The notes beneath the pieces were generated by a model. That model worked only from the letters and a program-made list of their open reading frames with translations. It searched no databases and was not told where the DNA came from. Below, in pieces: positions 24,701-45,813 of a DNA stretch of 64,000 nucleotides; position 1 is the stretch's first letter, and the number at the start of each line of letters is the position of its first letter. Origin of the DNA: Candidatus Omnitrophota bacterium (GTDB lineage Bacteria > Omnitrophota > Gorgyraeia > Ghiorseimicrobiales > Ghiorseimicrobiaceae); assembly GCA_030681595.1 (NCBI GenBank), contig JAUXSB010000008.1, forward strand, positions 89,587 to 153,586, written 5' to 3'. The translations under genes were made by a program, and so were the position numbers.

Positions 24701-24714
24701 GAAAAGGGGGTAAT

Positions 24715-25287
24715 ATGGTTGCGGCGATAATAGGGTTTGTACTTTTATTATTGGTAGTTGGGGTTTTGCTTTATTTTGTTTCAGTTTACAACGGCTTGGT
24801 GCGGCTTGCGCGCAACATTGAAAAGGCATGGGCGAATATCGACGTTTTATTGAAGCAGCGCCACGACGAGGTTTCTAAATTAATTAAAATCTGCGAAGGA
24901 TACATGAAATATGAAAGAGAAACCTTAGAAAAGATTACCGCAGCGCGTACCGTTTGTATGCAGGCAAAGGGTGCAAAAGACTCAGCCGCCGCGGAGAATC
25001 TGTTGAGCGGGGCATTAAAGACGCTCTTTGCGGTTGCGGAAAATTACCCCGATTTAAAGGTAAATCAGAATTTTCTGCAATTACAGGAACGGGTCAGTTA
25101 TTTAGAAAATCAGATTGCCGACCGCAGGGAATTTTTTAATGACTCGGTGAATGTTTATAATATCCGTATAAACCAGATTCCTGATATGTGGGTGGCAAGG
25201 CAAATGAGCCTTGTGCCTAAAGAAATGTTTAAGGTTGGCGAGGAAGATAAGAAAGACGTTGAGATAAAATTTGACTTTCCAAAATAA
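24715..25287 (+). CDS. LemA-family protein
   Basis: N-terminal TM, then LemA-typical helices (NGLVRLARNIEKAWANIDVLLKQRHDEV...). Confidence 0.75.
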   Translation: MVAAIIGFVLLLLVVGVLLYFVSVYNGLVRLARNIEKAWANIDVLLKQRHDEVSKLIKICEGYMKYERETLEKITAARTVCMQAKGAKDSAAAENLLSGALKTLFAVAENYPDLKVNQNFLQLQERVSYLENQIADRREFFNDSVNVYNIRINQIPDMWVARQMSLVPKEMFKVGEEDKKDVEIKFDFPK

Positions 25288-25309
25288 CTATAGTTTTTAT
25301 TGACTGTCT

Positions 25310-25804
25310 ATGCAAATAAAAAAGGAAAGAAGAAAATATCTTAGATACAATACTGAGGTTAAGATTTATTTTCATGTAAACTACGACCTTAAAACTAAAG
25401 TAAGGTTTCAGGTTTTAGATGAGAAAGAAAGCATGCTGCTATCAAAGAAATACCCCGCTTTAAGCAGAGACGTCAGCGCGGAGGGTTTGCGTTTTAATTC
25501 GGGTAAAGAGCTTAAGAAGGGAAATAGCCTTTATTTGGAAGTGTATTTACCAAGGAAGAAACGGCCTGTGCGTATGACAGGCCAGGTCAGGTGGTCAAAA
25601 AAAGTTTTGGGCTCCGGCTCCGGTAAAAATAAATTTGATACAGGGGTAAAATTATTAACTGTTTCGGGTAAGCCTGTTTCTAACTCAATTTATTTCGATA
25701 ACGAAAGCAGGGTTATCTGGAGCACGGTTTTGGATTCTGTCTTTGGCAGCTTCCGTAAGCTGATGCAAAAAAACACAGTTCCGCGGCGAGGTAACCGATT
25801 ATGA
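25310..25804 (+). CDS. PilZ-domain protein
   Basis: RRKYLRY (RxxxR) and RDVSAEGLRFNS (DxSxxG). Confidence 0.58.
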   Translation: MQIKKERRKYLRYNTEVKIYFHVNYDLKTKVRFQVLDEKESMLLSKKYPALSRDVSAEGLRFNSGKELKKGNSLYLEVYLPRKKRPVRMTGQVRWSKKVLGSGSGKNKFDTGVKLLTVSGKPVSNSIYFDNESRVIWSTVLDSVFGSFRKLMQKNTVPRRGNRL

Positions 25805-26280
25805 CAAGCAAAATTATACGAAGGCTAAATAAAAAAGTTGAGCGCCGGCGTTTTTTACGGCATTCGATGTGTTTTCCGCTTAGCTTTAGAGTAGCCCATG
25901 GAAGAGAAGGTAAAATCACAAAAGAAGAGATTTCCCTGACTAAGGATGTAAGCTGGGGAGGTTTATTGTTTTCGGCAAAGCACCGGGTTGAAAAAGGGAC
26001 CCCTATCGTTATAGCCATGCCTGTGCAGGATAAGATATTTAAAGTTAAGGCGAAGGTTGCGCGTTGTGTGATTAACCCGGACGCGAAACTTTATGATATC
26101 GGTGTTTATTTTCAAAGATTCAGCGAAGCGTTTAAGGTAAAATTGATTGAACAGATGTATCTAATCAGCGAATACCGGGAGCTGCGCAGTGTAGAGTTAG
26201 GCAGGATGCTGTCTATGCAGGAGGCTTCTGAGGAATGGATAAAACGCTATTCAGCGAGGTTTCAAAGGATTTATTGGTAA
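25801..26280 (+). CDS. PilZ-domain protein
   Basis: ERRRFLRH and TKDVSWGGLLFS motifs. Overlaps the upstream PilZ gene by 4 nt. Confidence 0.55.
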   Translation: MTSKIIRRLNKKVERRRFLRHSMCFPLSFRVAHGREGKITKEEISLTKDVSWGGLLFSAKHRVEKGTPIVIAMPVQDKIFKVKAKVARCVINPDAKLYDIGVYFQRFSEAFKVKLIEQMYLISEYRELRSVELGRMLSMQEASEEWIKRYSARFQRIYW

Positions 26281-33513: not shown

Positions 33514-34068
33514 GTGCATGAGTCGTCCTATGTAGACAAAAATGTCTCAATAGGCAGAGGTACCAAAATCTGGCATTTCTGCCATATTTTGGAAGGTTCC
33601 GCTATAGGCACGAACTGTAAGATCGGGCAAAATGTCGTAATCGGGCCGAATGTAAGGATAGGTAATAATGTTAAAATACAAAATAATGTTTCTGTTTATC
33701 CGGGCGTAATATTGGAAGACGATGTATTTTGCGGCCCAGCGTGTGTTTTTACGAATGTTTTTAACCCTAGGGCCGACATAGCAAGGATGGATGAGATGCG
33801 CCATACTTTGGTAAAAAAAGGCGCTACTATTGGTGCAAATGCCACGATTGTCTGCGGCCATACTATAGGTAGATATGCCTTTATAGGCGCAGGAGCGGTA
33901 GTTACTAAAAATACCCCGGATTTCGCTCTGGTTTATGGTAATCCTGCCAGAGTGTCCGGCTATATGTGTGAGTGTGGCATAAAACTAAAATTTAATAAAT
34001 TAAGCGCTTATTGTGTTGCTTGCGGCAGGCGGTATAGGATTAAGAAAGGAATAGTAGAAAATGAGTAA
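33514..34068 (+). CDS. left-handed beta-helix (hexapeptide) sugar N-acetyltransferase (WbpD-like)
   Basis: Hexapeptide repeats ([25 protein letters not shown]). GTG 33514 chosen as start; track gave 33472, which overlaps the upstream gene. Confidence 0.65.
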
Positions 34069-35719
34069 AGCAAAGAAACTGCGGGAGTTGTTCGCTAATG
34101 AGAAAATAATACGCGTAGTTGGCGCGCATAACGCCTTAAGTGCGAAGTTAGTCGAAGGCGCGGGGTTTGATGCGGTCTGGTCAAGCGGTTTAGAGATTTC
34201 AACCAGCTTTGGCGTTCCGGACGCGAATATTCTTACTATGACTGATTTCCTGAATGTTTCTAGTATTATGAATGAGGCCGTCTCTATACCTATCGTTGCT
34301 GATTGTGATACGGGGTTTGGTAATTCTAATAACGTGATTCACATGGTTAAAAAGTATGAAGCCGCGGGGATAGCCGCGGTTTGCCTAGAGGACAAATATT
34401 TCCCTAAGGTTAATAGTTTTATTCCGGGAAGGCAGGAGTTGGCTTCGATTTCGGAATTTGTCGGTAAGATTTTGGCGGCCAAAAATGCCCAGCTTAGTAA
34501 GGATTTTATGGTTATCGCCAGGGTAGAAGCATTAATTGCCGGATGGGGAATGGATGAAGCATTGAGGAGGGCGGGGGCCTACGCGGATGCCGGAGCAGAC
34601 GCTATACTTATCCATAGTAAAAGTAAAACTATCGATGAAATAGCTGAGTTTGCAAAGCGTTGGAAAAATATGTCGCCGTTGGTTGTCGTGCCTACGACTT
34701 ACTGCGATGTCCATATTGACGATTTAAGCCGTATCAACATCAAGATGGTTATTTACGCCAATCAAGGAATAAGGGCATCGATAAAGTCGATGCAGGAGGT
34801 TCTTGGGCGAATACATAAGGATGGGACTAGTAGAAATATCGAAAACCATATCAGTACCATGGAAGAAGTTTTTTGCCTCCAGGGCATGCATAAAATGAAA
34901 GAAGATGAACTTGTTTATTCATCCACAAGCGATAAGATTGTAGCTGTTATACCTGCCGCGGGGGATCATTTAGAAGAATATTCGATGAAAGATATATCAA
35001 AAGATATCCCGATTACGATGCTGGACATTAATGGTAAATCGCTCTTGCAGCGCCAGGCCGATATATTAAACAGGTCAAAAATCTATGATATCAGAGTGAT
35101 CGGCGGGTATAAAAAAGAAAAAATAAGCGTCGAAGGCGTAAAAATTATACCTAATTTAGAATATGAAACGCGGGGAATGATCCATTCGATTATGTGCGCG
35201 TTGAAAGACATTAAAGATTCGGCGTTTATTATATACGGAGATACACTTTTTGACTATTTGCTTATCAGTAAGATATTGAATACCCGCCGTGATATAACAT
35301 TGGCAGTTGATACAAGTAATGTGATAGGTGATGCTGGAACGGGCAAGAAGCCGGAGCTTGTTTTGACTGATGGCCCGGTTAAATCCCGGAGAAGAAGTTT
35401 GCATCAGGATAGCCTGCATGCGGTGAAAGACATCGGAAGCTCTGTTAAATACGCAAAGGATAATTTACAATTTACCGGTATTATGTTTTTATCGCAAAAA
35501 GGCGTAGAGATATTCAAGAAGAATTACGCCAAATATGAAAAAGAATACGCGCGGTCAAAGTCGCCAGAGGCAGGTACCTTTTGCCGCATGAATCTAATCG
35601 ATTTTTTAAAAAAATTGCATGATTCAGGCTATGGAATTGACTGTCTGTATGTTAATTCCGGGTGGATGGAAATCCATTCGCTCGATGATTATAAGCTTGC
35701 CTGCTCAATTTTTAAATAA
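34061..35719 (+). CDS. ppm: phosphoenolpyruvate phosphomutase fused to a C-terminal nucleotidyltransferase domain
   Basis: ICL/PEP-mutase fold with the Ppm-diagnostic [10 protein letters not shown] (EDK-x5-NS) and [10 protein letters not shown]-terminal roughly 250 aa is NTP-transferase-like (IVAVIPAAG...). Confidence 0.78.
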
Positions 35720-35728
35720 AGAAATTTT

Positions 35729-36217
35729 ATGATTAGGGTAAAAGATTTTTGGGATTATTTAGCGGGAAAAAATTTTATTTTTTTTAGCGGGGTACCGTGC
35801 TCTATTTTTAAAACGGTGTTAGATGAGGCAATAAATAGCGAAATCATTACATATGTTCCGGCTGTGCGGGAAGATGTTGCCATGGGAGTAAGCTCCGGCG
35901 CGTATTTGGCGGGCAAGAAAAGCGGAATTTTAATTCAAAATTCAGGGTTGGGGCATATCGTAAATACCCTGACTTCGTTTAACCTTATTTACAAAATTCC
36001 CGTCCTCATGTTTATCAGTTGGCGCGGCTATATGGGTAAAGACGCTCCGGAGCATAAAATTATGGGTAGGAAAACGATAAGTTTGTTGAGTGGCCTTGAT
36101 ATACCGCATAGGGCGCTTAGCGTAGATTTTGACAAAGATTTGAACTGGGCAATCGGCATAATGGAAAAGAAACACATCCCCGTTGCGTTAATAGTTAAAG
36201 AGGGCCTATTTAAATGA
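35729..36217 (+). CDS. ppd: phosphonopyruvate decarboxylase, alpha (N-terminal ThDP pyrimidine-binding) subunit
   Basis: TPP_enzyme_N-like 162-aa protein directly after ppm, overlapping the beta subunit by 4 nt. Confidence 0.7.
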   Translation: MIRVKDFWDYLAGKNFIFFSGVPCSIFKTVLDEAINSEIITYVPAVREDVAMGVSSGAYLAGKKSGILIQNSGLGHIVNTLTSFNLIYKIPVLMFISWRGYMGKDAPEHKIMGRKTISLLSGLDIPHRALSVDFDKDLNWAIGIMEKKHIPVALIVKEGLFK

Positions 36218-36777
36218 CGACCGAGGATATCTTGAGATCAGTCTTAGCTTTTAAGGTTGATAACGCCGTATACCTTTTTACTAACGGCTATATCAGCCGG
36301 CAGGCCTACGGAATCGCCGATAGCGCTAAGAATTTTTATTTGATCGGGTCAATGGGGTTAGTTTCTTCCTTAGGGTTAGGAATCGCCATGAACTCTAAAA
36401 AGAAAGTTGTCGTTCTAGACGGAGATGGAAGCATCTTGATGAATATGGGCACAATGCCGCTTATCGGGTACATAGAACCGAATAATTTGATACATTTTAT
36501 TTTGGATAACTTTGCCTATCATAGTACCGGTAACCAGCCGACTATTTCGGAAAATATAGATTTTTTAAAGATGGCTTGCGCTTGTGGGTACAAAAAGGTG
36601 TTTCGTTTTAAAAAGATCAGTGAATTTAAGAGCGCGCTACCAGAAATATTTAATGCTTGCGGCCCGGTTTTTGTGCATATGGTTATCGGCAAGAATGATT
36701 CCAGCGCCGGCCCCCGGGTGGGCCTGGCTCCTCTTATGCTCGCGCGACGCATTAGGAAAACCATAAGGTCTCTTTAA
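36214..36777 (+). CDS. ppd: phosphonopyruvate decarboxylase, beta (ThDP-binding) subunit
   Basis: ThDP motif GDGSILMNMG...N. Confidence 0.72.
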   Translation: MTTEDILRSVLAFKVDNAVYLFTNGYISRQAYGIADSAKNFYLIGSMGLVSSLGLGIAMNSKKKVVVLDGDGSILMNMGTMPLIGYIEPNNLIHFILDNFAYHSTGNQPTISENIDFLKMACACGYKKVFRFKKISEFKSALPEIFNACGPVFVHMVIGKNDSSAGPRVGLAPLMLARRIRKTIRSL

Positions 36778-36779
36778 TT

Positions 36780-37934
36780 ATGTTTCATATTTTTACTGTT
36801 ATAGGCGCTCGGCCACAATTTGTTAAAGCGGCGGTAGTTTCTCTGGCAATAAAGAGGCTGGGGCGTGGTATTATTAAAGAGTCTATTATACACACGGGAC
36901 AGCATTACGACTATAGTATGAGCGGTATTTTTTTTAAAGAATTGAATATTCCCCGGCCGATAGATAATCTTAATGTTGGTTCTTTTAGCCATGGTAAGCA
37001 GACCGGTATTATGCTGGAGAGGCTGGAAAGGGTTTTTATTAGGGATCATCCTGATATGGTTTTAGTTTACGGCGATACAAATTCTACTTTGGCGGCAACG
37101 CTCGCCGCCGCTAAATTGCACATACCTGTCGCCCATGTGGAAGCCGGCATGCGCAGTTTCAATAAATTAATGCCGGAAGAACTTAACCGTGTAGCGGTAG
37201 ACCACATGAGCGATATTTTATTCTGTTCTTCGGATGCCTCGGTAAAGAATTTACGCCGGGAAGGAATACCGGATAAAAATAACGGTAAGTGCTGCGTTGT
37301 GTTAAATGTAGGCGATGTTATGGTTGATGCTTTAAAATTTTTTTATAGTTATGCAGAGAAGAGGTCAAAAATATTAGCTAAATTGAATCTTAAGCCCCGG
37401 AATTATTACTTAGTTACTGTGCATAGGGCAGAAAATACGGATAGTTTGGAAAAATTAAAAGTTATTTTTAAATCTTTGAATATCATCGCCGAGAAAGGCA
37501 GTTGTGTCGTGATTCCCATGCACCCGCGCACTCTCAGCGCGTTGAAAAGATTGGGGATGAAGAATTTTTCAAAAAATATGCGTATAATCGGACCTGTTTC
37601 TTATTTTGATATGCTGCTTTTGGAAAAAAACGCGGCAGGAATTTTTACTGATTCAGGCGGCGTGCAAAAAGAAGCCTATATTTTTAGAGTGCCTGCTATT
37701 ACATTGAGGACAGAGACAGAGTGGGTGGAGACCGTAAAGAGCGGATGGAATACCTTGGTGCCAATAAACGAAAAGGCGATTATGTTGGCTTTTGATAAGA
37801 TGGCGCGCTTTAAGCGGGATTCTTTGAGGGTCACAAGCAATATTTACGGTGACGGGAAGGCATCTGGCCGCATAGCCGGTTTTTTTCAAAAATATTTTAT
37901 AACAACAGTAAAAATTAAACCAGGACTCGGCTAA
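36780..37934 (+). CDS. UDP-N-acetylglucosamine 2-epimerase (WecB/WbpI/NeuC family)
   Basis: FHIFTVIGARPQFVKAA N-terminus, HVEAGMRS and PMHPRT motifs. Confidence 0.8.
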   Translation: MFHIFTVIGARPQFVKAAVVSLAIKRLGRGIIKESIIHTGQHYDYSMSGIFFKELNIPRPIDNLNVGSFSHGKQTGIMLERLERVFIRDHPDMVLVYGDTNSTLAATLAAAKLHIPVAHVEAGMRSFNKLMPEELNRVAVDHMSDILFCSSDASVKNLRREGIPDKNNGKCCVVLNVGDVMVDALKFFYSYAEKRSKILAKLNLKPRNYYLVTVHRAENTDSLEKLKVIFKSLNIIAEKGSCVVIPMHPRTLSALKRLGMKNFSKNMRIIGPVSYFDMLLLEKNAAGIFTDSGGVQKEAYIFRVPAITLRTETEWVETVKSGWNTLVPINEKAIMLAFDKMARFKRDSLRVTSNIYGDGKASGRIAGFFQKYFITTVKIKPGLG

Positions 37935-38110
37935 TGAGGTTTGCCAAAGAATGTTAAGCCTAAAAGAAATCAGGGCAAAATACCAGTCTCCTTGGTATGA
38001 GAAGAAGAGAATTAACAATACGATTTATTTTTTTTGTACCGCCGTAGGCAGCTTAAGGCATGGTTTTGATCCCGCCCTTATCTTAATACTCGGTTTTTGC
38101 GCTTCTCCGG
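37792..38110. repeat. segmental duplication copy A (3' end of the 2-epimerase gene + intergenic + 5' part of the CDP-alcohol phosphatidyltransferase gene; carries an internal 281-bp deletion)
   Basis: 37792-38020 is about 97% identical to 39444-39673. 38021-38110 aligns to 39955-40046. Confidence 0.85.
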
Positions 38111-38211
38111 GGGTTATTTTTTACGGCCTACTTTCTTATTTATTTAAGATGGAAGAACTTAAGTTTGTATTATCATTAATTCGAAAAAAACCATCAGAAG
38201 TTGCAGTTTAA
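37951..38211 (+). pseudogene. truncated remnant of the CDP-alcohol phosphatidyltransferase gene
   Basis: MLSLKEIRAKYQSPWYEKKRINN is joined directly to IYFFCTAVGSLRHGFDPALILILGFCAS (residues about 1-23 and 120-150 of the intact copy at 39604). Confidence 0.7.
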
Positions 38212-38255: not shown

Positions 38256-39368
38256 ATGCATTCACGAATAAAAATTTTGATATTTTCATTCCTTCCGCTT
38301 ATACTGTTGCTATTTTTCGGCGAGTTATTTTGCAGGGTGAGGTCCTATGTTCGAGACAAAGATGCCTCTTATTTGCTTACGCCGTTAATCAGGAAAGAGA
38401 AGTCCGTAGAGTATCAATTCCAGGCTAGCCATTTTTTTAAAGGCAGCCCTGATTGGTATTATAAGTTAAAACCCGCTTCTTACTCTCCTCATAAAATTTC
38501 TGGTTATTGCGGCCGCTATACAATAAATTCGCTTGGATTCCGCGGCAAGGAATTCGATCCGTTCAATAAGGATGGGAAGCTGAGGATATTTTGTGTCGGC
38601 GAATCCAGTACCTTTTGTGCCGAGTCGTCCGATGCGGACACCTGGCCGGCGCGGCTAGAATACTACTTGGACAAAAATAAAGAAGATAGTTATGAGGTAA
38701 TAAACAGCGGTTTCCCCGGATATTACAGCTGGAATTATATCAATCTTATCCGCCTTGAGTTAATAAAATATAAACCTGATATGTTGATTATTTACGCAGG
38801 GATAAATGATTTATACGGCAGCATTGAGAAGAAGAAAAAAATAATTAACAGGATGGCAGATTATATCCATGCTTTATTATATTATCGCGGGTCTATGTTT
38901 TATGCCTTGTTTTCAGAAAAGGTGAAAGTTGCGACAAATTCTCACAGACCAATAAATATTGATACGATTGATAGTATCGGAACTTATATTAATAATATTG
39001 AAGGTATAATTAAAATCTGTAAAGATAACGGTATAAGGGTTATATTGGTGAGGCAGTTGCTTTATGCGCCTAATGAAATATTCGCGCGCGATAATTTAAC
39101 ACTGGAAGGGGTTAGGAAGGCTTTAGAGGCAATGCCGTCAGATAGCCATGGCGTGAACTATTCTACTTATCTGGAATTCTATCGCCATTATGAATTAATG
39201 GAATCTTTGGCAAAGTTATCCAGTAAATACACCATAACCACATTAGATTTTAGAGGAGAATTTTTAAAGGTTTTGGCTAATGATAAGGGAAAGCTTTTCT
39301 TTGATATGGTACACCTGACTCTTTATGGGAATGACCTTTTAGCCAAATTAATATCAGGCTTCATTTAG
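38256..39368 (+). CDS. SGNH/GDSL-family hydrolase with N-terminal membrane anchor
   Basis: Block I FCVGESST, block III GINDL, block V DMVHLT. Inserted between the two duplication copies. Confidence 0.6.
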   Translation: MHSRIKILIFSFLPLILLLFFGELFCRVRSYVRDKDASYLLTPLIRKEKSVEYQFQASHFFKGSPDWYYKLKPASYSPHKISGYCGRYTINSLGFRGKEFDPFNKDGKLRIFCVGESSTFCAESSDADTWPARLEYYLDKNKEDSYEVINSGFPGYYSWNYINLIRLELIKYKPDMLIIYAGINDLYGSIEKKKKIINRMADYIHALLYYRGSMFYALFSEKVKVATNSHRPINIDTIDSIGTYINNIEGIIKICKDNGIRVILVRQLLYAPNEIFARDNLTLEGVRKALEAMPSDSHGVNYSTYLEFYRHYELMESLAKLSSKYTITTLDFRGEFLKVLANDKGKLFFDMVHLTLYGNDLLAKLISGFI

Positions 39369-39443
39369 AAAAGCAGTATTTCAAAAACGATAAACAATAA
39401 ATGAGCATAAAACAGAAAATATTTATTTTTTTAATCCTTGGTT

Positions 39444-40046
39444 TTTGATAAAATGGCGCGCTTTAAGCGGGATTCTTTGAGGGTCACAAGCAATATTTAC
39501 GGTGACGGGAAGGCATCTGGCCGCATAGCCGGTTTTTTTAAAAAATATTTTATAACAACAGTAAAAATTAAACCAGGACTCTGCTAATGGGGTTTGCCAA
39601 AGAATGTTAAGCCTAAAAGAAATCAGGGAAAAATACCAGTCTCCTTGGTATGAGAAGAAGAGAATTAACAATATTTTCTCGCGGTATTTCTATACTGCCA
39701 TAGCAACTGTATTGGTCAAGTTTATTTTGCCTACAAAGATTACAGCTAATCAGATTACTGTAAGTTGGGTTATCCTGGGTTTTTTAGGGTGTTTGCTATT
39801 TACCGCGGGAAATTATTGGGTTAGTATCTTGGCCGTTTTGGTTATACAGTTGCATGTTGTTTTAGATTATGTGGATGGCCCGATTGCAAGGGCGCGCAAT
39901 AAAAAAAGCTTCAAAGGCATCTATATTGAACGCGTAGGGCATGATCTCATCTATACGATTTATTTCTTTTGTATCGCCGTAGGCAGCTTAAAGCATGGTT
40001 TTGATCCCACCCTTATTTTAATACTCGGTTTTTGCGCTTCGGTGGG
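39444..40046. repeat. segmental duplication copy B (intact)
   Basis: Carries a 44-codon remnant of the epimerase 3' end (39444-39580) upstream of the intact phosphatidyltransferase gene. Confidence 0.85.
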
Positions 40047-40395
40047 AGGTTTTTTTTATAAGCATGCCAGGCGGGCAAAGATTTATTGCTCGCTTACCTC
40101 AAAAAAAAATACGCCTGAGAATAACGTTGCCTTAGGAGGGCAGGCCGGAAATATGAAGGTTTCCGGTAAGAAGAAGCCAAGTTTTGCGCGTAGAGTCTAT
40201 CGAAGTTCGTTGATTATATGGGAACCTGTTTTTTTTACCGCGGTTTCATTGGTGCTGGCAATATTTGACCGCTTATATTTCTTACCCATATTTTATGGAT
40301 TGACGTATCCTTTGCATTTTGTGCTTTCGTATGTTTACCAGGCGCGTATGGCGGATAAAGAGGTTGATAAATTAACGGATATGACGGGTGATTAA
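39604..40395 (+). CDS. CDP-alcohol phosphatidyltransferase-family membrane protein
   Basis: DYVDGPIARARNKKSFKGIYIERVGHD (D-x2-DG-x2-AR...G...D-like motif) and about 6 TM segments. Confidence 0.62.
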   Translation: MLSLKEIREKYQSPWYEKKRINNIFSRYFYTAIATVLVKFILPTKITANQITVSWVILGFLGCLLFTAGNYWVSILAVLVIQLHVVLDYVDGPIARARNKKSFKGIYIERVGHDLIYTIYFFCIAVGSLKHGFDPTLILILGFCASVGGFFYKHARRAKIYCSLTSKKNTPENNVALGGQAGNMKVSGKKKPSFARRVYRSSLIIWEPVFFTAVSLVLAIFDRLYFLPIFYGLTYPLHFVLSYVYQARMADKEVDKLTDMTGD

Positions 40396-40401
40396 ATTAT
40401 T

Positions 40402-41151
40402 ATGAGAGCGATAATTATTGCCGCTGGAAGGGCAAAGCGCATGGGGCATTTATCGGATAGCCTACCGAAGTGCCTGCTTCAGGTTAACGGTAAAACCGTA
40501 TTAGCGCATCAAATCGATGCCTTAAGGGCGTCTAAGATCAATGATATTGTAGTAATTAAGGGTTACAAAAAAGACCTTATTGATTATCCCGAAATACGTT
40601 ATCGTATCAACGATAATTATATGAACAATAATATTTTGAATTCTTTATTTTGTGCCGAAGAGGATATTAGTGGAGATGTCTTAATTACATACGGCGATGT
40701 GTTGTTTAGGCCAACTATAGTCAGTAAATTATTCAATACAGAGGGCGATTTTGTGATAGCTGTTGAGGATGGCTGGCGCAGCCGCTATCATGAAAGGGAT
40801 GCCCACCCTCTAAGTGAGGCGGAAAATGTTGTTATGGACAGCCAGAGGCGCTTAATTGAAATCGGCAAAATTATGAATGGTAAAGATAGCGCTAATGCCG
40901 AGTTTATAGGTATGCTGAAGTTGAGTGCTTCCGGCGCTCAGATACTAAAAAAGGTATTCCGTGAGGTTAAACTAAAACTTTCCGGCAAACCGTTTCAGCG
41001 CGCTGTTACGTTTGAGCAGGCTTATTTGACTGATATGCTTCAGGAGCTGGCTGACAGGAATTATGTATTGCCCTGCGTTGACGCCGCGGGAGATTGGGCA
41101 GAAATTGATACTCCCCAGGATTATCAGTTTGCCCAGAAAATGTTCGCATAG
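40402..41151 (+). CDS. sugar-phosphate/phosphonate nucleotidyltransferase (LicC/PntC-like NTP_transferase)
   Basis: MRAIIIAAGRAKRMG N-terminal Rossmann-like signature. Confidence 0.6.
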   Translation: MRAIIIAAGRAKRMGHLSDSLPKCLLQVNGKTVLAHQIDALRASKINDIVVIKGYKKDLIDYPEIRYRINDNYMNNNILNSLFCAEEDISGDVLITYGDVLFRPTIVSKLFNTEGDFVIAVEDGWRSRYHERDAHPLSEAENVVMDSQRRLIEIGKIMNGKDSANAEFIGMLKLSASGAQILKKVFREVKLKLSGKPFQRAVTFEQAYLTDMLQELADRNYVLPCVDAAGDWAEIDTPQDYQFAQKMFA

Positions 41152-42027
41152 ATGAATAACTATACGGCATTTGCGCTTATACTTGTTTCGGCATTAATTC
41201 ATCCTTTTTGGAATATATTGCTCAAGGCAAGTAGAGATAAAGTAATTTTTTATTTTAATATACATTTATTTTTCACGGTATTTTTTAGTTTTATCCTTTT
41301 TATATACCCGGTAACGTCTTTGGACGGCGCTGCCTGGTTTCTGGTTTTATTATCCAGCGTCGCGCATTTTTTTTATCAGTTGTTTCTTTGTAAGGCATAC
41401 AAATTAGGGGATTTATCGGTAACTTATCCTATTGTCAGGTCAGCGCCTCTATTTGTGGCAGCTATGGGGTTCTTTTTTCTTGGCGAGAAGCCATCATTGA
41501 TTGCCGTATTCGGGATTGCGCTTACAGTAATCGGAGCCCAGATGATTAACCAAAAGGAGCTGTCGTTAAGGCATTTTATTAATTCATGGAGGCATTCCGA
41601 AAAGCGGATTATTTTAGCGGCTGTTCTTACAGCTATGTTTTCCGCGGTATATTCCGTTATAGATAAGAAAGGCGTATTGAAGGTAGAGCCGGTTTTGTTC
41701 TTTTATCTTTTTTTTGCTTTTTCAGGGGCGATGTTTGGTATATACCTATTTTTTTCTAAAAAAAGACGGCATATTTATAGAGATTATACCAATAGGGATA
41801 AATACAAGATTGCCTTAGCGGCAATATTAGAATTTTCTTCCTATCTTTTAATACTATATGCCTTCAGGGTTCTTAATGTGGCGCATGTTGTAGCGATACG
41901 CCAAATAAGCGTGGTATTCGGTGCTATCTTAGGAATATTCATCTTAAAGGAGAGATGTGGAAGGATAAGGATATTGGCGTCTTTCGTTATATGCCTGGGA
42001 ATTTATTTTTTGGTCGCGTATAAATAA
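41152..42027 (+). CDS. EamA/DMT-superfamily transporter
   Basis: 10 predicted TM segments arranged as two 5-TM repeats. Confidence 0.6.
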   Translation: MNNYTAFALILVSALIHPFWNILLKASRDKVIFYFNIHLFFTVFFSFILFIYPVTSLDGAAWFLVLLSSVAHFFYQLFLCKAYKLGDLSVTYPIVRSAPLFVAAMGFFFLGEKPSLIAVFGIALTVIGAQMINQKELSLRHFINSWRHSEKRIILAAVLTAMFSAVYSVIDKKGVLKVEPVLFFYLFFAFSGAMFGIYLFFSKKRRHIYRDYTNRDKYKIALAAILEFSSYLLILYAFRVLNVAHVVAIRQISVVFGAILGIFILKERCGRIRILASFVICLGIYFLVAYK

Positions 42028-42059: not shown

Positions 42060-43280
42060 ATGGAACACAATGGTAATAAAAGAGAGAACAAGGAAAAAAT
42101 TGCCTTGTTTCCCGGTATGGCGGGTTTGACCAGAGATATTATTGAGCGTATGAAATCCGAAGGGGTCAAGCTTCTTTCTTTGGATATTATGGTTACCCAG
42201 AAATGTAATTTTTGTTGCAGCTATTGTTACGCCGAGGGGTCTCCTGCGAAAACTAATGAGCTTAGTATGAAAGAGGCAATGGCAATCGTTGATGAAGCCA
42301 TCGGGTTAGGCGTGAGGATTATTAATATGCAGGGCGGAGAGCCGCTTATGTGGCATCCCGCGGATTGGAAGGGTAAAAGCGGAGAAGCGCTATTTCATCT
42401 TATGGAATATATCCGCGGCTCTTTTGCTAAGAAAGGCCTGCCGCTTGACCTGGTAAGCTTTACAGACGTGGCTTTAATTACTGAGGAAAAGGCGCGTAGG
42501 CTTGCCGGTTTAGGTGTCGCGCTCTGTTGTAAGCTTGATTCGCTTGATCAGGATATTCAGGATAAGTTACTGGGGACGCCTGGTGGCGCAAAAAAGATGA
42601 TGCAGGGTTTTAACAATTTAATCATGGCTGGCTACGGATCGAAAGATATGCCGACGATTTCTACGAATACCGTAGTCACAACTTTAAACTACGGCGTAAT
42701 TAAAGATGTCTTTAGATGGTCCAGAAGTCATGGGTTTCGCCCTTTTGTGATTCCGGTGCATGTTCACGGAAGGGCTAAAGAGAATAGCGATATTATGCTT
42801 TCGGGTAAAGAAACAAAAAGCACGCTTAGCCCCAAAGATATAAAAACATTATTTGAAGAATTGGCAAAGATAGACAGGGAGGAATTCGGGATAAATTGGG
42901 AACCGCTCAGTCCCTGGATAGAAAATAAGGCCTGTTCTCGCCATTTAGGAGGCGTGCATATTAGGGCAGATGGTGTTGTTGTTCCTTGCTCCGAGGCGCC
43001 TGACCGCTGGGCGTTGGGGGATATCCGTAAGCAGTCTCTAAGTGAGATAGTTCTTTCAGAAAAAGTTGAGAAATTCAGGCAGGTCTATAGCCAGCTGCAT
43101 GAGCATTCCAAATGTTCTCCTAATAATTGCCCTTTAAGTGCTGCGAAGAAATGCTATGGTTGCAGGACCAGGGCTTATGACGAGTCCGCATTTGACGAGA
43201 ACGGTAATTTTGATGCCGCCAGATTAAATCCTGACAGTTTTTTTGCCGGTGATCCGGCTTGTTGGCGCGGCACGGAGTAA
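42060..43280 (+). CDS. radical SAM enzyme with C-terminal SPASM/twitch-like Cys-rich domain
   Basis: CNFCCSYC (Cx3Cx2C). C-terminal CSEAP...CSPNNCPLSAAKKCYGCRT. Confidence 0.62.
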   Translation: MEHNGNKRENKEKIALFPGMAGLTRDIIERMKSEGVKLLSLDIMVTQKCNFCCSYCYAEGSPAKTNELSMKEAMAIVDEAIGLGVRIINMQGGEPLMWHPADWKGKSGEALFHLMEYIRGSFAKKGLPLDLVSFTDVALITEEKARRLAGLGVALCCKLDSLDQDIQDKLLGTPGGAKKMMQGFNNLIMAGYGSKDMPTISTNTVVTTLNYGVIKDVFRWSRSHGFRPFVIPVHVHGRAKENSDIMLSGKETKSTLSPKDIKTLFEELAKIDREEFGINWEPLSPWIENKACSRHLGGVHIRADGVVVPCSEAPDRWALGDIRKQSLSEIVLSEKVEKFRQVYSQLHEHSKCSPNNCPLSAAKKCYGCRTRAYDESAFDENGNFDAARLNPDSFFAGDPACWRGTE

Positions 43281-43297
43281 TTTAAAATACCTAATAT

Positions 43298-44659
43298 ATG
43301 GCAAAAGTTACTGTATATATAACAGCGCATAATTACGGCAAGTACGTTAAAAAGGCTATAGATAGCGTTTTGAGCCAGAAATTTAATGACTGGGAATTGA
43401 TTGTTATTAATGATGGCTCAACCGATAACACTAAAGAGATCCTCAAAAAATATAGTTCACATGGCAAGATAAAAGTTATACATCAAGAAAAAAAAGGTTT
43501 AGCCGTAAGTAATAATATCGCGCTGAGGCTTTCGCGCGGCGAATATATCATGCGTCTTGACGCGGATGACTACCTTGATGAAAATGCGCTGTTAGTCCTG
43601 TCTAATATTTTAGATAGCCATCGCGATGTGGGCTTGGTCTATCCTGACTATTATAGGGTAGATGAAAAGGGTGAGATTATTGATATAGAAAGAAGGAAAA
43701 AGGTCGGCAAAGATGCAAAATTGCTGGATCTGCCAGCGCATGGGGCATGCACGATGATACGTAAATCATGCCTTTTGGATTTAGGCGGCTACGATGAATC
43801 GCTTTCGTGCCAGGATGGATATGACCTATGGATAAGGTTTATAAACAGATTTAAGCCGTATAACGTGAATATTCCATTATTTTATTACCGGCAGCATCCC
43901 TTAAGCCTTACGCGCGACCGGGAGAAAATACTTCTCACCAGGCATGGCATAAAGAGGAATTTCGTAAGGAAGAATTTTCTAAAAATCCCCAAAGTTTTGG
44001 CAATAATACCAATAAGAAAAGAATCGGATGCAAGCACGGCTTCCGCTTTAAAGGAATTTACAGGCAGGCCATTAATTGATTTTACCATTTTGGAAGCGAA
44101 AAAAACAAAGCTGCTTGATAAAATAGTAGTTAGTTCTGACGATGACCGGATACTTAAATACGCGGCTAAATTTAGCGGTATATCATGTGTTAGGCGCCCT
44201 GAGGAATTATCTTTACCGAATTCGCGTATAGAGCCGACGGTTGATTATGTGCTTAAAGCGTTAAGAAGAGAAGCGGGTTATAAACCGGACGCGGTTATGT
44301 TGTTATATATCCATACGCCGTTAAGAAAATATATTCATATTGAGAAAGCCATTGATACAATGCTTATTTTTGGCGTAGACAGCGTGGTATCGGTTTGCGA
44401 AGATTATAGTTTTTATTATCGCCACAACAAAAATGGGCTTACGCCGTTTTCGCGCAAGCGGCTTTTGCGCCTTGAACGGGAAGCGCTCTATAAAGAAAAT
44501 TGCGCTTTATATCTTTCGCGTGTATCTTCGATTACGAAAGATAATTTTTTGGGAAAGCGGATTGGGCATATTACGATGCTGCCGCAGGAAAGTATAAAGT
44601 TAGACAATGAATTTGATTTTTGGCTGGCGGAAAAGATCGCTAAAGAATGGAAAAACTAA
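43298..44659 (+). CDS. bifunctional GT2 glycosyltransferase / CMP-sugar synthetase-like (CTP_transf_3) protein
   Basis: N-terminal GT2 (VINDGSTDNT, RLDADD). C-terminal NeuA/KdsB-like domain (LAIIPIRKESDAST...VVSSDDDRI). Confidence 0.62.
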   Translation: MAKVTVYITAHNYGKYVKKAIDSVLSQKFNDWELIVINDGSTDNTKEILKKYSSHGKIKVIHQEKKGLAVSNNIALRLSRGEYIMRLDADDYLDENALLVLSNILDSHRDVGLVYPDYYRVDEKGEIIDIERRKKVGKDAKLLDLPAHGACTMIRKSCLLDLGGYDESLSCQDGYDLWIRFINRFKPYNVNIPLFYYRQHPLSLTRDREKILLTRHGIKRNFVRKNFLKIPKVLAIIPIRKESDASTASALKEFTGRPLIDFTILEAKKTKLLDKIVVSSDDDRILKYAAKFSGISCVRRPEELSLPNSRIEPTVDYVLKALRREAGYKPDAVMLLYIHTPLRKYIHIEKAIDTMLIFGVDSVVSVCEDYSFYYRHNKNGLTPFSRKRLLRLEREALYKENCALYLSRVSSITKDNFLGKRIGHITMLPQESIKLDNEFDFWLAEKIAKEWKN

Positions 44660-45813
44660 AATTAATTTCGAAACGCATCAAAAATCCTATCGGATGCCTG
44701 CCGCTTCGTAAATACGCAAGTAGTGCAAAAAGCGTATTAATAATTACGGATGATAATACCAGGTTTACTCCGTTAAAAAGCATATTGCCGATAGTATTAA
44801 ATGAATTAAGGGACGCGGGGATAACCAATAAACAGCTAAAGATATTAATTGCATCCGGCACGCATCGGCCGATGACAAAAAAAGAGATTAGAGATAAATT
44901 CGGCTCTGCGCTCGCAGCCAATTACAAAATCTATAATCATTCTTGGAATAAAGAATCTTCCTTATCAAGGATCAGCGAAAAAATCAGAGGCAGGCGTATT
45001 TGCATTAACCGCCTGGCAAAGGAGGCGGATTTTATAGTAGGCATAGGAAGCATTGTGCCGCATGCTACGACAGGGTTTTCAGGCGGCGGTAAAATAATCT
45101 TGCCCGGTATTTGCGGCAAGGAAACAGTTGAAGACATGCATTGGGAGGCTTTAAATTTCCAGATGAAAGAAATCTTAGGGGTTTATGATAACCCTATGCG
45201 CAGGAGGGTGGATTCCGTAGCAGAAAAATCAGGGCTTAAGTTTATAGTTAACGCGATTATGGATTGTAAGGGCAGGCTTGTAGATGTGGTAGCCGGCGAT
45301 CCGGTTAAGGCGCATAAAAAGGGAGTAGAGCTCGCAAAAGCTATATTTGGCCTGCCTATGGATAGCCTAGCCGATATCGTAATAGCGGATGCAAAGCCTA
45401 TGGATATAGATTTACGTCAGGCAATTAAAGCGGTTGCTTCAAGCGAACTTGCTGTTAAAGACGGCGGAGTTATTATACTTTTGGCGAGATGCCCTGAAGG
45501 GGCGGCACCGCAGTTTCCGGAATTTGAAAAATACGGATTTAGCGACCCTGATAAATTAAAAGTTATGGCAGAAAAAGGAAAAATAAATAGATTAGCCGCT
45601 TATACATTGATTGCCATAGGGAGAATCATAAAGTATAAAGCGAAGGTTATTTTAGTCTCAAAAGGGATACCTCGCGGGGCTGCCGAAAAGTTAGGATTTC
45701 TCTGGGCGAGATCTTTGGAAGCCGCCTTGAGAAAAGCAAAAGATTTAAGCGGACAGAATGCGAGAGTTGTTTTTTTGAAGAGGGCCTGCGAAGTATTACC
45801 GTTGATGAATTAG
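44647..45813 (+). CDS. LarA-like (DUF2088, lactate-racemase N-terminal-domain family) protein
   Basis: Whole-protein pattern resembles nickel-pincer-nucleotide-dependent LarA homologs, with a GFSGGGKIILPG region. Assigned by pattern memory only. Confidence 0.45.
   Translation: MEKLKLISKRIKNPIGCLPLRKYASSAKSVLIITDDNTRFTPLKSILPIVLNELRDAGITNKQLKILIASGTHRPMTKKEIRDKFGSALAANYKIYNHSWNKESSLSRISEKIRGRRICINRLAKEADFIVGIGSIVPHATTGFSGGGKIILPGICGKETVEDMHWEALNFQMKEILGVYDNPMRRRVDSVAEKSGLKFIVNAIMDCKGRLVDVVAGDPVKAHKKGVELAKAIFGLPMDSLADIVIADAKPMDIDLRQAIKAVASSELAVKDGGVIILLARCPEGAAPQFPEFEKYGFSDPDKLKVMAEKGKINRLAAYTLIAIGRIIKYKAKVILVSKGIPRGAAEKLGFLWARSLEAALRKAKDLSGQNARVVFLKRACEVLPLMN

Follow-up and report, generated by a model that had tools for sequence, protein, structure and literature searches.

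A putative phosphonate head-group module in a surface-glycan locus of an Omnitrophota MAG

Of the pathways that proceed through the PEP mutase Ppm, those leading to 2-aminoethylphosphonate (AEP) clearly predominate, and 56% of the ppm neighbourhoods belong to them (Li & Horsman 2022). The commonest architecture of Ppm itself, with 33% of all Ppm, is a fusion to a PF12804 domain, whereas Fom1 of fosfomycin biosynthesis bears an N-terminal cytidylyltransferase domain of family PF01467 (Rice 2019, PMC6697681). In Tde-PntC, replacing either Arg15 or Lys25 by Ala leaves less than 10% of the activity (Rice 2019, PMC6697681). A further set of ppm neighbourhoods, 'Post-Ppd other', exemplified by Campylobacter GCF 385, with its radical-SAM gene, and Fibrobacter GCF 60, was flagged by its authors as a likely source of new phosphonate chemistry (Li & Horsman 2022). 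Here, a 64-kb stretch of DNA (hereafter the window), part of a 190-kb contig of an Omnitrophota MAG, is compared with these systems. A phosphonate head-group module lying in an LPS/glycan locus is, as a whole, the best explanation of its content, albeit a tentative one.

The module comprises a Ppm~NT fusion ORF of 552 aa (34061-35719, + strand), the N-terminal domain of which (34061..34930, +) is, on sequence grounds, a PEP mutase with all catalytic residues present. Pfam profile matches placed PF13714 (PEP_mutase) at aa 7-251 (E 1.6e-56), and the NCBIfam PEP mutase model TIGR02320 scored 326.5 bits against a cut-off of 319.55. Phosphonopyruvate hydrolase (297, cut-off 374), methylisocitrate lyase (182, cut-off 354) and carboxyPEP mutase (114, cut-off 420) were rejected as NCBIfam assignments, the last two being the ICL-fold groupings raised in the earlier note. 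The closest solved structures are themselves PEP mutases, namely 5unc (2.6e-105) and the Mytilus enzyme 1m1b (2.3e-76). The EDKxxxxxNS motif by which an ICL-fold protein had been recognised as Ppm (aa 110-119, nt 34388-34417) held on alignment with 1m1b. In this alignment, S42, D54, D81, D83 and E110 fall on Mytilus S46, D58, D85, D87 and E114, and K116, N118, S119, R154 and H185 on K120, N122, S123, R159 and H190, with D54 and S42 as the equivalents of the active-site Asp58 and Ser46. None of these ten catalytic residues varies across 19 aligned homologues. At the motif site, the phosphonopyruvate hydrolase 2dua reads EDKTFPKDTS.

The start of the adjoining gene, 9 nt past the ppm stop codon, opens a pair overlapping by 4 nt that would encode a split phosphonopyruvate decarboxylase (Ppd), with a RhiE-like alpha subunit (35729..36217, +, 162 aa) as the ThDP pyrimidine-binding half and a RhiF-like beta subunit (36214..36777, +, 187 aa) as the ThDP diphosphate-binding half. 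The two products share out the 360 positions of TIGR03297, with alpha covering 2-155 (120 bits) and beta 171-358 (167 bits), and the sulfopyruvate decarboxylase ComD/ComE scores were lower (107 and 152 bits). They also match RhiE (PDB 9iz3_A, 1.1e-40) and RhiF (9iz3_B, 3.7e-28), respectively, and beta further matches PF02775 (E 7e-16), with a readable GDG...DN ThDP motif. All three ORFs are thus as the earlier note had described them, and its statement that Ppm and Ppd lead to phosphonoacetaldehyde (PnAA) agrees with the family assignments of both enzymes. Judging by these assignments, a split Ppd is not new and corresponds to a known form, as in the solved heteromeric RhiEF (PDB 9IZ3). The conversion of PEP to PnAA is near certain as a prediction: the Ppm domain would yield phosphonopyruvate, and the RhiEF-type two-subunit ThDP decarboxylase would turn it into PnAA, pulling an unfavourable equilibrium forward.

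The surface-glycan context proposed earlier for the module was upheld, as were two of the downstream neighbours that had been named, a nucleotidyltransferase (NTase) and a CDP-alcohol phosphotransferase-family protein; for the third, a TagF-like transferase at 48122, weak TagF or capsule-synthesis-like matches only were found. The CDP-alcohol phosphotransferase-family membrane protein (39604..40395, +; PF01066, 32.8 bits, cut-off 22) carries the variant motif DYVDGPIAR-x8-G-IYI-E-RVGH-D. Compared with the reference motif of this family of polytopic membrane proteins, D-x2-D-G-x2-A-R-x8-G-x3-D-x3-D, Glu occupies the third acidic position and the fourth acidic residue is shifted by one position, a departure that weighs against the head-group module. 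The protein is syntenic in L001, L005, L006, L031 and L034, and is our candidate for transferring the activated head group. The standalone LicC/PntC-like NTase (40402..41151, +; PF12804, E 9e-16) has the signature AAGRAKRMGHLSDSLPK, in which Arg and Pro-Lys are intact and Ala takes the place of the second Gly in GXG, together with an ExD motif (WAEID). Of 41 family members compared, all retain R13, 40 K23 and 39 D236, and these residues make the protein a candidate true cytidylyltransferase. Next to it lie an EamA/DMT-family membrane transporter (41152..42027, +; PF00892, E 6e-27) and a radical-SAM/SPASM protein (42060..43280, +; PF04055 and PF13186), two conserved partners that the earlier note did not include. 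Among NCBIfam models, the transporter matches TIGR03340 best ('phosphonate utilization associated putative membrane protein'), though its 155 bits stay under the cut-off of 288, and EamA adjoins Ppm~NT in 12 loci. The radical-SAM/SPASM protein reached no NCBIfam model at cut-off. About 80 of its 84 homologues share at least 58% identity with it, the next ones falling to 34%, and C49/C53/C56 (CX3CX2C) and seven C-terminal SPASM cysteines are invariant in the family. Its AF2 model (pLDDT 85) has anSME 4k39 as its closest solved fold (TM 0.62-0.69), at only ~20% identity. As a member of a tight, uncharacterised family tied to phosphonate clusters, it is a candidate PnAA-tailoring enzyme.

The enzymes that usually act on PnAA were not obvious to the earlier note, whether a PhnW-like AEP transaminase (AEPT) or a FomC/PhpC-like Fe-alcohol dehydrogenase (Fe-ADH), and the ORF scan agrees. 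Neither Aminotran_5 (PF00266) nor Fe-ADH (PF00465) was detected among the scanned ORFs of at least 150 aa in the 64-kb window; the scan covered all of these but seven located before position 20 kb, which at 151-262 aa are too short for AEPT or Fe-ADH (~350-370 aa). Likewise, tblastn with an AEPT query gave no match in the type-C loci. A further 11 fusion loci do have Fe-ADH (cluster c14). The radical-SAM/SPASM gene occurs without AEPT or Fe-ADH in 10 of the 37 H-type fusion loci (the window, L001, L005, L006, L007, L022, L027, L030, L031 and L034), which come from Omnitrophota, Chloroflexota, Planctomycetota and Deltaproteobacteria and usually include a standalone NTase. The absence of both enzymes is therefore conserved in ten loci, the window among them, across several phyla. 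Three of these loci (L001, L005 and L006) share Ppm~NT, PpdAB, NT, EamA, radical-SAM/SPASM, a 2-epimerase and the CDP-OH transferase, and L027 is a minimal EamA-rSAM/SPASM-Ppm~NT-Ppd operon with opposite-strand genes on both sides. A scan centred on the radical-SAM/SPASM gene recovered homologues of at least 31% identity in 18 loci, where the flanked ones mostly adjoin Ppd, NT, EamA or Fe-ADH; in 62 more distant radical-SAM/SPASM loci, Ppm, Ppd, NT and Fe-ADH were never found, and an AEPT-like match was found once. Thus, a conserved trio of nucleotidyltransferase, transporter and radical-SAM genes sits beside Ppm-Ppd where the usual next enzyme is missing.

Based on this conserved gene order, our best guess is that PnAA is tailored by the radical-SAM protein, then CMP-activated by the NTase at 40402 and finally transferred by the CDP-alcohol-transferase-like protein. 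PnAA would bypass the usual AEPT or Fe-ADH, and the radical-SAM/SPASM protein would tailor it, or a close derivative, a step that has about an even chance of belonging to the pathway. The LicC/PntC-like NTase would then activate the resulting phosphonate with CTP, and the protein at 39604 would phosphonylate a hydroxyl of a lipid or glycan; the cargo of the EamA/DMT protein may be the activated donor or an intermediate of the pathway.

An ordinary AEP (Pnt) pathway is the alternative that survives best, and it is unlikely, if by no means negligible. In that case, AEP would be formed by another aminotransferase or by an AEPT whose gene lies beyond the window, and would then be CMP-activated and transferred to lipid or glycan, with the trio genes as accessories. 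The general prevalence of AEP speaks for it, as do the 28 of 87 loci that have AEPT and the related Omnitrophota loci L002 and L167, in which AEPT stands beside Ppd; the window covers just 64 kb of its contig, and an AEPT could lie elsewhere in the incomplete genome. Against it, the ten syntenic loci from several phyla have no AEPT within +/-10 kb, nor does the closed four-gene operon of L027 contain one. The NTase and CDP-OH transferase of the window moreover come from other families than their AEPT-linked counterparts, with ~25% identity for the NTase and 30% over only 106 residues for the transferase. A weak point in the same direction is that the contigs of the window locus, L001, L005 and L006 are not represented among the 120 best AEPT homologues.

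The trio could also work in the manner of LicC/LicB, on an imported head group that is not a phosphonate (choline or an amino alcohol, for example). It would then lie near Ppm-Ppd only because the two decorate one glycan, and the fate of PnAA would be independent of it. EamA and the choline permease LicB belong to the same superfamily, and among solved relatives the NTase at 40402 is nearer LicC (6.3e-16) than Tde-PntC (9.5e-05). What sets a preference for a phosphonate (AEP) or for phosphocholine in such enzymes is steric, and the regions concerned align poorly here. Furthermore, in L167 the NT-EamA-rSAM/SPASM trio is in one operon with, and set apart from, a complete, self-sufficient AEP core that has its own NTase and CDP-OH transferase, so that the trio could serve a second, separate head group, which counts against our preferred explanation. 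We nonetheless regard this as improbable, since no LicA-type kinase was found in the window, radical-SAM/SPASM homologues directly adjoin Ppd in many loci (L087, L090, L091, L103), the EamA and radical-SAM/SPASM genes of L027 are partnered only by Ppm~NT and Ppd, and the top family match of EamA is a phosphonate-associated DMT.

The C-terminal part of the fusion (34943..35719, +) bears on the third alternative. That Ppm is fused to a C-terminal nucleotidyltransferase, as the earlier note had it, is borne out at the level of family and fold: PF12804 NTP_transf_3 matched aa 320-409 (35.0 bits, cut-off 27), and the AF2 model of the domain (pLDDT 88) had LicC 1jyk (TM 0.70/0.80) and PntC 6pd2 (TM 0.72) as its top Foldseek matches. 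The fusion is not new but the commonest known form; a homologue scan gave at least 4411 homologues at E <= 1e-20, the best 120 of which all have PF13714 and mostly a PF12804 match. The fused domain and the standalone NTase at 40402 are paralogues sharing 32% identity. In the fused domain, the signature GXG(T/S)R-X4-8-PK is broken, with S308 at the Arg site and I318 at the Lys site, and H539 replaces the conserved Asp, giving WMEIH in place of WxEID (metal-binding ExD). A motif census found R13 kept in 4 of 72 fused domains and K23 in none of 36 scorable H-type domains, the window's included, the D236 site of which holds His in 32 and D, N or R in the others. The paralogue retains the catalytic Arg and Lys as well as the Asp, whereas the fused domain lacks the first two and has His for the third, and is therefore probably not the working cytidylyltransferase. 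CMP activation by it is doubtful, as the missing residues are those needed for cytidylyl transfer (Rice 2019). The Arg and Lys that would hold CTP at its alpha-phosphate and at the pyrophosphate to be released appear lost, and the fold and substrate-side residues appear kept; from these residues, there is about an even chance that the domain is a ligand-binding or scaffolding paralogue rather than a catalytic cytidylyltransferase. A compensating basic residue may come from another loop, and L027, in which a standalone NTase is absent within 21.6 kb, counts against a pseudo-enzyme, suggesting that this locus either has an active fused domain or can do without nucleotidyl activation.

A Fom1/Fom3-like logic would require an active fused NTase making a CMP-phosphonate (e.g. 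CMP-HEP), to be C-methylated by one or more B12 radical-SAM enzymes before transfer. The likeness consists of a Ppm fused to a nucleotidyltransferase-type domain and of three B12-binding radical-SAM genes in the wider locus (49948, 56109 and 62260), which the earlier note had correctly listed. B12 radical-SAM genes directly adjoin Ppd in the fusion loci L002, L016 and L167, L008, where no Ppd is visible, has one after Ppm~NT, and Fom1/Fom3 itself is the precedent (Rice 2019, PMC6697681). We consider this logic quite improbable here. The earlier description of the domain order as the reverse of Fom1 is misleading because the Fom1 domain belongs to a different family; no Fom1-type N-terminal PF01467 was found in the fusion, in which Ppm starts at aa 7 and the sole extra domain is the C-terminal PF12804. 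The two are of unrelated folds (LicC type for PF12804) and not a permutation. In addition, the window has no FomC-type Fe-ADH to make HEP, and the fused domain is without the Arg15 and Lys25 equivalents. At 13-26 kb downstream, the B12 radical-SAM genes are scattered among glycosyltransferase (GT2) and methyltransferase genes. Their products share only 28-35% identity with the B12 radical-SAMs found next to Ppd in other loci, reached no NCBIfam cut-off, PhpK-type P-methylase models included, and carry no orthology evidence for Fom3 function. C-methylation of the phosphonate, as had been suggested, is thus unsupported, as is any connection of these three genes with the phosphonate.

A remnant in decay, formerly an AEP cluster but now without AEPT and PntC and unable to complete a phosphonate, would fit a gene order resembling L167 minus its block of B12-rSAM, AEPT and NT', and a recent rearrangement at the epimerase/CDP-OH transferase junction (a 1.65-kb insertion with a flanking 236-nt repeat), but is highly improbable given ORFs that are all intact and translationally coupled, invariant Ppm catalytic residues and an AEPT-less arrangement kept across phyla at 47-91% protein identity.

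A phosphonate head-group module, which we prefer, can be set against several known systems. LicABCD phosphocholine decoration likewise combines a LicC-like NTase with an EamA/DMT protein, for CMP activation followed by surface-glycan transfer; in contrast, the window has neither LicA kinase nor LicD transferase, and its genes are linked to Ppm/Ppd and a radical-SAM enzyme. RhiE/RhiF of rhizocticin biosynthesis in Bacillus subtilis (PDB 9IZ3/9IZ4) are similarly adjacent genes of ~160 and ~190 aa for two ThDP-binding halves, but the window lacks the RhiG aldolase and peptide-ligase genes of the rhizocticin cluster and offers another pathway context. Like the 'Post-Ppd other' neighbourhoods, it has Ppm and Ppd and lacks all seven known branch-point enzymes; the association of NT, EamA and radical-SAM/SPASM, and the MAG-only lineages, are not described in that inventory of complete RefSeq genomes (Li & Horsman 2022). 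The Pnt pathway of the 'Burkholderiales_CDP-OH' cluster type (Rice 2019; Li & Horsman 2022) shares a Ppm with C-terminal PF12804, Ppd, a second, adjacent standalone LicC-like NTase, a CDP-alcohol phosphotransferase-family protein and a cell-envelope context. An example is the aepX-aepY-AEPT region of the Mycetohabitans endofungorum megaplasmid (L168), and in the cultured Burkholderiales example, too, a canonical standalone NTase is paired with a non-canonical fused domain. Unlike this type, the window has no AEP transaminase or 2OG oxygenase, its Ppd is split, its NTase and CDP-OH transferase are of different subfamilies, and it has EamA and radical-SAM/SPASM genes.

The phosphonate genes of the window begin with an ORF (34061-35719) whose 552-aa product joins a PEP mutase (Ppm) domain (PF13714, aa 7-251, E 1.6e-56) to a C-terminal nucleotidyltransferase (NTase)-fold domain (PF12804, 35 bits for a cut-off of 27), as had been read from the sequence alone. 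The protein passes the NCBIfam PEP mutase equivalog model (326.5 bits vs 319.55) and reaches none of the NCBIfam cut-offs for phosphonopyruvate hydrolase, methylisocitrate lyase or carboxyPEP mutase. Its nearest solved relatives are PEP mutases, namely 5unc (2.6e-105) and the Mytilus enzyme 1m1b (2.3e-76). In the active-site alignment proposed by the earlier note, all catalytic residues, S42/S46 and D54/D58 among them, are in register with 1m1b, and they are invariant in 19 homologues; at the site of the EDKxxxxxNS motif, phosphonopyruvate hydrolase has EDKTFPKDTS. Nothing that the earlier note had named as speaking against a Ppm was found. The split phosphonopyruvate decarboxylase (Ppd) was also rightly recognized, as each of the two ORFs (PpdAB, 35729-36217 and 36214-36777) scores higher against its half of the Ppd model than against sulfopyruvate decarboxylase. 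The alpha ORF begins 9 nt past the ppm stop and overlaps the beta ORF by 4 nt, and their closest solved relatives are RhiE (1.1e-40) and RhiF (3.7e-28), the heteromeric Ppd characterised by Nakamura et al. 2024 (reviewed in PMC12141560; structures PDB 9IZ3 and 9IZ4).

Neither the order of the fusion nor the split Ppd is new, both being textbook for the field, and the finding as first written consists of ordinary, already catalogued features. About 60% of EDKxxxxxNS-motif proteins are fused to another domain, the commonest partner being PF12804 (33%), followed by the Fom1-type PF01467 (23.6%) (Rice et al. 2019, PMC6697681). Since Fom1 carries PF01467 and the window protein PF12804, two different families, the "reverse order of Fom1" put forward previously is no rearrangement of the same parts. 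The 552-aa fusion has at least 4411 homologues at E <= 1e-20; among the best 120 of these, nearly all are 523-564 aa long (one has 478 aa), PF13714 is found in 120/120 and a PF12804 match in most. Full-length fusions in 80 genome loci come from Omnitrophota, Scalindua, Chloroflexota, Nitrospirota, Acidobacteriota, Planctomycetota and archaea.

Based on the clustering of ORFs from 87 loci and Pfam annotation of the recurrent clusters, the surroundings of these fusions can be divided into three module types. Type A, found in Nitrospirota and Deltaproteobacteria, comprises Ppd, a class-V aminotransferase (the AEP transaminase, AEPT) and an NTase, often with an NTase-CDP-OH transferase fusion and an LPG-synthase-TM protein. 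Type B, found in Chloroflexota and others, comprises PpdAB, an Fe-alcohol dehydrogenase (Fe-ADH) and an NTase. Type C combines Ppd, an EamA transporter and a radical-SAM/SPASM protein, usually with a standalone NTase, and has neither AEPT nor Fe-ADH; it includes the window and loci L001, L005, L006, L007, L022, L027, L030, L031 and L034, with L001 showing the same gene order and a Ppm 91% identical to that of the window. Two classes of fused domain, H-type (including the window) and K-type, are told apart by the residues at their Lys and Asp positions. A tblastn tally over 37 H-type loci gave the radical-SAM/SPASM gene as only partner in 10, Fe-ADH only in 9, both in 2, AEPT in 6 (one also with Fe-ADH) and none of the three in 10, six of which lie on short contigs and three of which, from Scalindua, lack a visible Ppd; the radical-SAM/SPASM gene was found in none of the K-type loci. 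One alternative is that an AEPT encoded elsewhere in the genome supplies the missing step, and the view is of 64 kb of an incomplete genome. Among the best 120 AEPT homologues, none lay on the contigs of the window locus or its relatives, which is weak negative evidence. In the three Candidatus Scalindua loci (L003, L008 and L023), no Ppd occurs within +/-10 kb of the fusion. After the fusion comes EamA in L003 and L023 or, in L008, a B12 radical-SAM gene; these loci could represent a pathway from phosphonopyruvate without decarboxylation, or Ppd could be encoded elsewhere.

A second alternative is the Fom1/Fom3-like model of the earlier note, which drew on the three B12 radical-SAM proteins of the window. 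By family these are real class-B enzymes, and an association of B12 radical-SAM genes with Ppd recurs in L002, L016 and L167 (in L008 the gene follows the fusion, with no Ppd in view). The window copies reach no NCBIfam cut-off and are separated from Ppd by 13-26 kb, being encoded downstream between genes for GT2, PMT_2 and methyltransferase proteins. With the Ppd-adjacent proteins of L002 and L167 they share just 28-35% identity, and for this low identity their orthology was rejected as Fom3-like evidence. The window offers no specific evidence that its own B12 radical-SAM proteins act on a phosphonate.

The radical-SAM/SPASM protein (at 42060) belongs to a family of 84 database proteins, all environmental and named just "radical SAM protein", about 80 of which share at least 58% identity before a drop to 34%. 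Scanning metagenomes with the family alignment yielded 18 loci at >=31% identity, and phosphonate genes adjoin those with usable flanks: Ppd in L087, L090, L091, L092, L093, L094, L095 and L103, an NTase like the standalone one of the window in L087, L089, L093, L094, L095, L098, L100 and L102, EamA in L088 and L089, and Fe-ADH in L093, L094, L098, L100, L102 and L103. More distant radical-SAM/SPASM loci had Ppm, Ppd, NTase or Fe-ADH in 0/62, with a single AEPT-like match in one. The >=58% subfamily, to which the window protein belongs, occurs without Fe-ADH, and the 31-37% subfamily usually occurs with it. The cleanest case is a Deltaproteobacteria MAG (L027, 7869-12822), in which EamA, radical-SAM/SPASM, the Ppm fusion and a Ppd of fused alpha+beta form make up a four-gene operon bounded by opposite-strand genes. 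The main caution comes from L167 (1-12735), where a complete AEP core (Ppm fusion, PpdAB, B12 radical-SAM, AEPT, an NTase and a CDP-OH transferase) is followed in the same operon by the NTase-EamA-radical-SAM/SPASM trio and then by another B12 radical-SAM gene. The NTase and transferase of this core belong to other families than those of the window (about 25% identity, and 30% over only 106 residues). The trio may therefore use the same phosphonoacetaldehyde (PnAA) pool, supplied by one Ppm/Ppd, for a second head group; that it serves something else entirely appears less likely.

An AlphaFold model of the radical-SAM/SPASM protein (pLDDT 85) is closest to anSME, the anaerobic sulfatase-maturing dehydrogenase (TM 0.62-0.69, ca. 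20% identity), and such a predicted fold fits radical H-abstraction with auxiliary clusters without identifying the substrate. Attempts to place the protein more narrowly were unsuccessful: NCBIfam returned just weak AhbD, NirJ and MoaA matches far under cut-off, and its fold neighbours, generic anSME and sactipeptide maturases, are non-diagnostic. An anSME role in maturing a sulfatase-fold phosphonyl enzyme was not adopted, as no sulfatase-family gene occurs in the window, although such genes are found beside or near phosphonate genes in L007, L020 and L029. Genes of the sulfatase/alkaline-phosphatase superfamily (PF00884) recur in phosphonate loci L007 (15558-16688), L020, L029, L100 and L103, directly after the radical-SAM/SPASM gene in L007 and a few kb away in L100 and L103. 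Literature searches for SPASM proteins with PEP mutase, or for Omnitrophota with phosphonate, returned nothing relevant. The trio could alternatively fill a LicB/LicC-like role, with its LicC/PntC-like NTase (at 40402) and its EamA protein (at 41152); this reading has to be set against the Ppd genes that adjoin the radical-SAM/SPASM gene in eight of the scanned loci and against the best family match of the EamA protein, the phosphonate-associated TIGR03340 (155 bits, under the cut-off of 288). Gene decay in the window, the weakest alternative, would have to be squared with the AEPT-less, alcohol-dehydrogenase-less cassette that recurs in a number of phyla, anaerobic and for the most part uncultured. 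What becomes of PnAA is a genuine question, and one that is a conserved property of this recurrent cassette.

The fused NTase-fold domain has LicC as sole match among solved structures (E 0.0011), and its AlphaFold model (60 homologues, pLDDT 88) adopts the LicC/PntC fold (1jyk, TM 0.70/0.80; 6pd2, TM 0.72). It is a paralogue of the standalone NTase (32% identity, E 1e-36). The signature of these enzymes is GXG(T/S)RX4-8PK; alanine mutants of Arg15, Lys25 and Lys153 in Tde-PntC retain <10% activity, and FrbH and YgbP lose all activity when the corresponding Lys is changed to Ala (Rice et al. 2019, PMC6697681). The standalone NTase has the N-terminal signature AAGRAKRMGHLSDSLPK, with R13 and K23 at the Arg and Lys positions, and a C-terminal WAEID motif, whereas the fused domain has S308, I318 and WMEIH. 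In an alignment of 76 fused domains (72 scorable at the Arg, Lys and Asp positions; all from proteins at least ca. 40% identical to the 552-aa fusion) and 41 standalone NTases, the latter kept Arg in 41/41, Lys in 40/41 and Asp in 39/41. The fused domains kept the signature Arg in 4/72, and half of the 72 have no catalytic Lys. The 36 K-type domains (Nitrospirota/Acidobacteriota) keep Pro-Lys and ExD; the 36 scorable H-type domains have a hydrophobic residue after the invariant Pro, and 32 of them have His in place of Asp. The fused domain is conserved, with 37-60% identity beside 60-76% in the Ppm domain.

Because the Arg is almost never kept, the Lys is missing in half and the adjacent genes usually include a canonical NTase, these sequence comparisons suggest a regulatory or scaffolding role for the fused domain, for which cytidylyl transfer by the known mechanism is unlikely. 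The domain retains a conserved substrate-side Arg, the Asp of YGD and the ExD Glu, and we infer that it has a ligand, which may be the phosphonate or its CMP conjugate. Against a non-catalytic domain, a compensating residue is possible, and 21.6 kb of L027 contain no standalone NTase. The one Burkholderiales example added to the sample of fusions is from a cultured organism with the Burkholderiales CDP-OH architecture, Mycetohabitans endofungorum (megaplasmid NZ_CP062169.1, 543224-548307), which encodes a CDP-OH transferase, a 2OG oxygenase, an LPG-synthase domain, a canonical NTase, the aepX fusion, aepY and AEPT. Its aepX domain is a third variant that keeps Pro-Lys, has lost ExD (WRGVN in place of WxEID) and so degenerates differently from that of the window, and directly upstream lies a fully canonical "phosphocholine cytidylyltransferase family protein". 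This pair agrees with the remark of Li & Horsman 2022 that such clusters have two PntCs, one fused to Ppm.

The window has a G+C content of about 40% and carries nearly all genes on the + strand. Housekeeping genes fill its first 24 kb (alanine racemase, LptF/LptG, RtcB, SerRS, Pif1 helicase and three tRNAs), LptF/LptG indicating a diderm organism, and a bacterial RRM_1 (RNA-recognition-motif) protein is encoded at 20008-20736. Shortly before the glycan genes, a run kept in L001 encodes a GIDE-domain protein, LemA and two PilZ-domain proteins (23780-26280); the two PilZ proteins beside polysaccharide genes suggest that the latter are under c-di-GMP control. A single long glycan locus then extends from about 26.4 kb to the window end. 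It comprises two nucleotide-sugar dehydrogenases, two SDR epimerase/dehydratases, a DegT aminotransferase, a GFO oxidoreductase (UDP-GlcNAc 3-dehydrogenase-like), a hexapeptide acetyltransferase, a WecB-type non-hydrolysing 2-epimerase (295 bits, cut-off 210), NeuB-domain and CMP-sugar-synthetase-domain fusions, several GT2 and PMT_2 proteins, methyltransferases and the three B12-binding radical-SAM proteins. The oxidoreductase, DegT and acetyltransferase were rejected as PnAA enzymes, since they fit, with the WecB-type epimerase, a WbpB/E/D-type UDP-2,3-diacetamido-uronic acid route; their synteny with ppm is limited to close relatives. Condensation of PEP with PnAA by the NeuB-domain protein was likewise set aside; its domain scores NeuB/PseI-like, and the locus has plausible nonulosonic-acid genes. 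This protein is a fusion of truncated CTP_transf_3, NeuB and SAF (46513-48135); its homologues and those of a GT2-CTP_transf_3 (PseF-like) fusion (43298-44659) adjoin the Ppm cassette in a Planctomycetaceae locus (L030), and a NeuB-type gene also adjoins Ppm in L010 and L036, which may be a sign that the phosphonate is paired with a nonulosonic-acid-type sugar.

Several other features of the locus were recorded. A LarA-family homologue (nickel-pincer-cofactor 2-hydroxyacid racemase/epimerase; 44647-45813) is syntenic after the GT2-CTP_transf_3 gene in L001, L005 and L006; it falls under every NCBIfam subfamily cut-off (best, malate racemase LarAH6, 296 bits vs 500), and no larB, larC or larE was seen in the window. 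Two large ORFs, at 52747-54354 (535 aa; faint PMT_2 match, E 0.004) and 59837-61354 (505 aa), have no significant Pfam/NCBIfam match and are probably polytopic membrane glycosyltransferases or polymerases. Two copies of a 236-nt direct repeat (37785-38020 and 39438-39673), 97% identical and at a spacing of 1653 nt, enclose an SGNH/GDSL-family gene (38256-39368) and an 86-aa ORF (37951-38211) that opens with a duplicate of the first part of the CDP-OH transferase gene. The relative L001 (91% identical) has the CDP-OH transferase gene directly behind the epimerase gene, so that the 1.65 kb in the window were either inserted recently or duplicated in assembly. In the metagenomic relative L006 (3796-5919), an intein (PF14890 Intein_splicing) interrupts an NAD-dependent epimerase/dehydratase gene. 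Rfam and tRNA scans revealed no regulatory RNA near the genes, and promoter/terminator scans were near background. The sole other assembly of the organism (L004) ends about 480 nt past window position 63768 and gave no useful extension downstream.

By homology, the Ppm domain converts PEP to phosphonopyruvate, from which PpdAB yields PnAA; we infer all later steps. Synteny suggests that the radical-SAM/SPASM enzyme would tailor PnAA or a near derivative, that the canonical NTase would form a CMP conjugate, that the CDP-alcohol-transferase-family protein (at 39604; variant motif DYVDGPIAR-x8-G-x3-E) would transfer the phosphonyl group onto a hydroxyl of a lipid or glycan, and that EamA would move an intermediate or the activated donor. 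From its sequence, the fused NTase-like domain is a putative binding or scaffolding module. Two testable hypotheses follow: the fused domain is non-catalytic, and the radical-SAM enzyme opens a new route out of PnAA. The radical-SAM/SPASM protein of the window and its ca. 80 relatives may be a new O2-independent phosphonate branch-point enzyme acting on PnAA or 2-hydroxyethylphosphonate, and the PF12804 domains fused to about one third of all Ppm may be non-catalytic paralogues rather than cytidylyltransferases; we regard this reading as rather improbable. For specialists, both the role of the fused domain and the missing branch-point enzyme could matter. The NTase fusion claimed for about 60% of Ppm enzymes has been read as two co-evolving catalytic activities. 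The cassette of Ppm fusion, Ppd, EamA and radical-SAM/SPASM is a concrete, clonable candidate for a "post-Ppd other" pathway, where new phosphonate chemistry is expected. If the branch-point reading is true, anaerobes (Omnitrophota, Dehalococcoidia, Planctomycetota and Deltaproteobacteria) would gain a route to C1-type or novel phosphonate head groups, which could include methyl- or hydroxymethyl-phosphonate esters on surface glycans. Suggestive in this respect are the positions of the two radical-SAM/SPASM subfamilies, one, as in the window, straight after Ppm-Ppd and the other after Ppm-Ppd-Fe-ADH, the place held in aerobes by the O2-dependent enzymes HEPD and MpnS.
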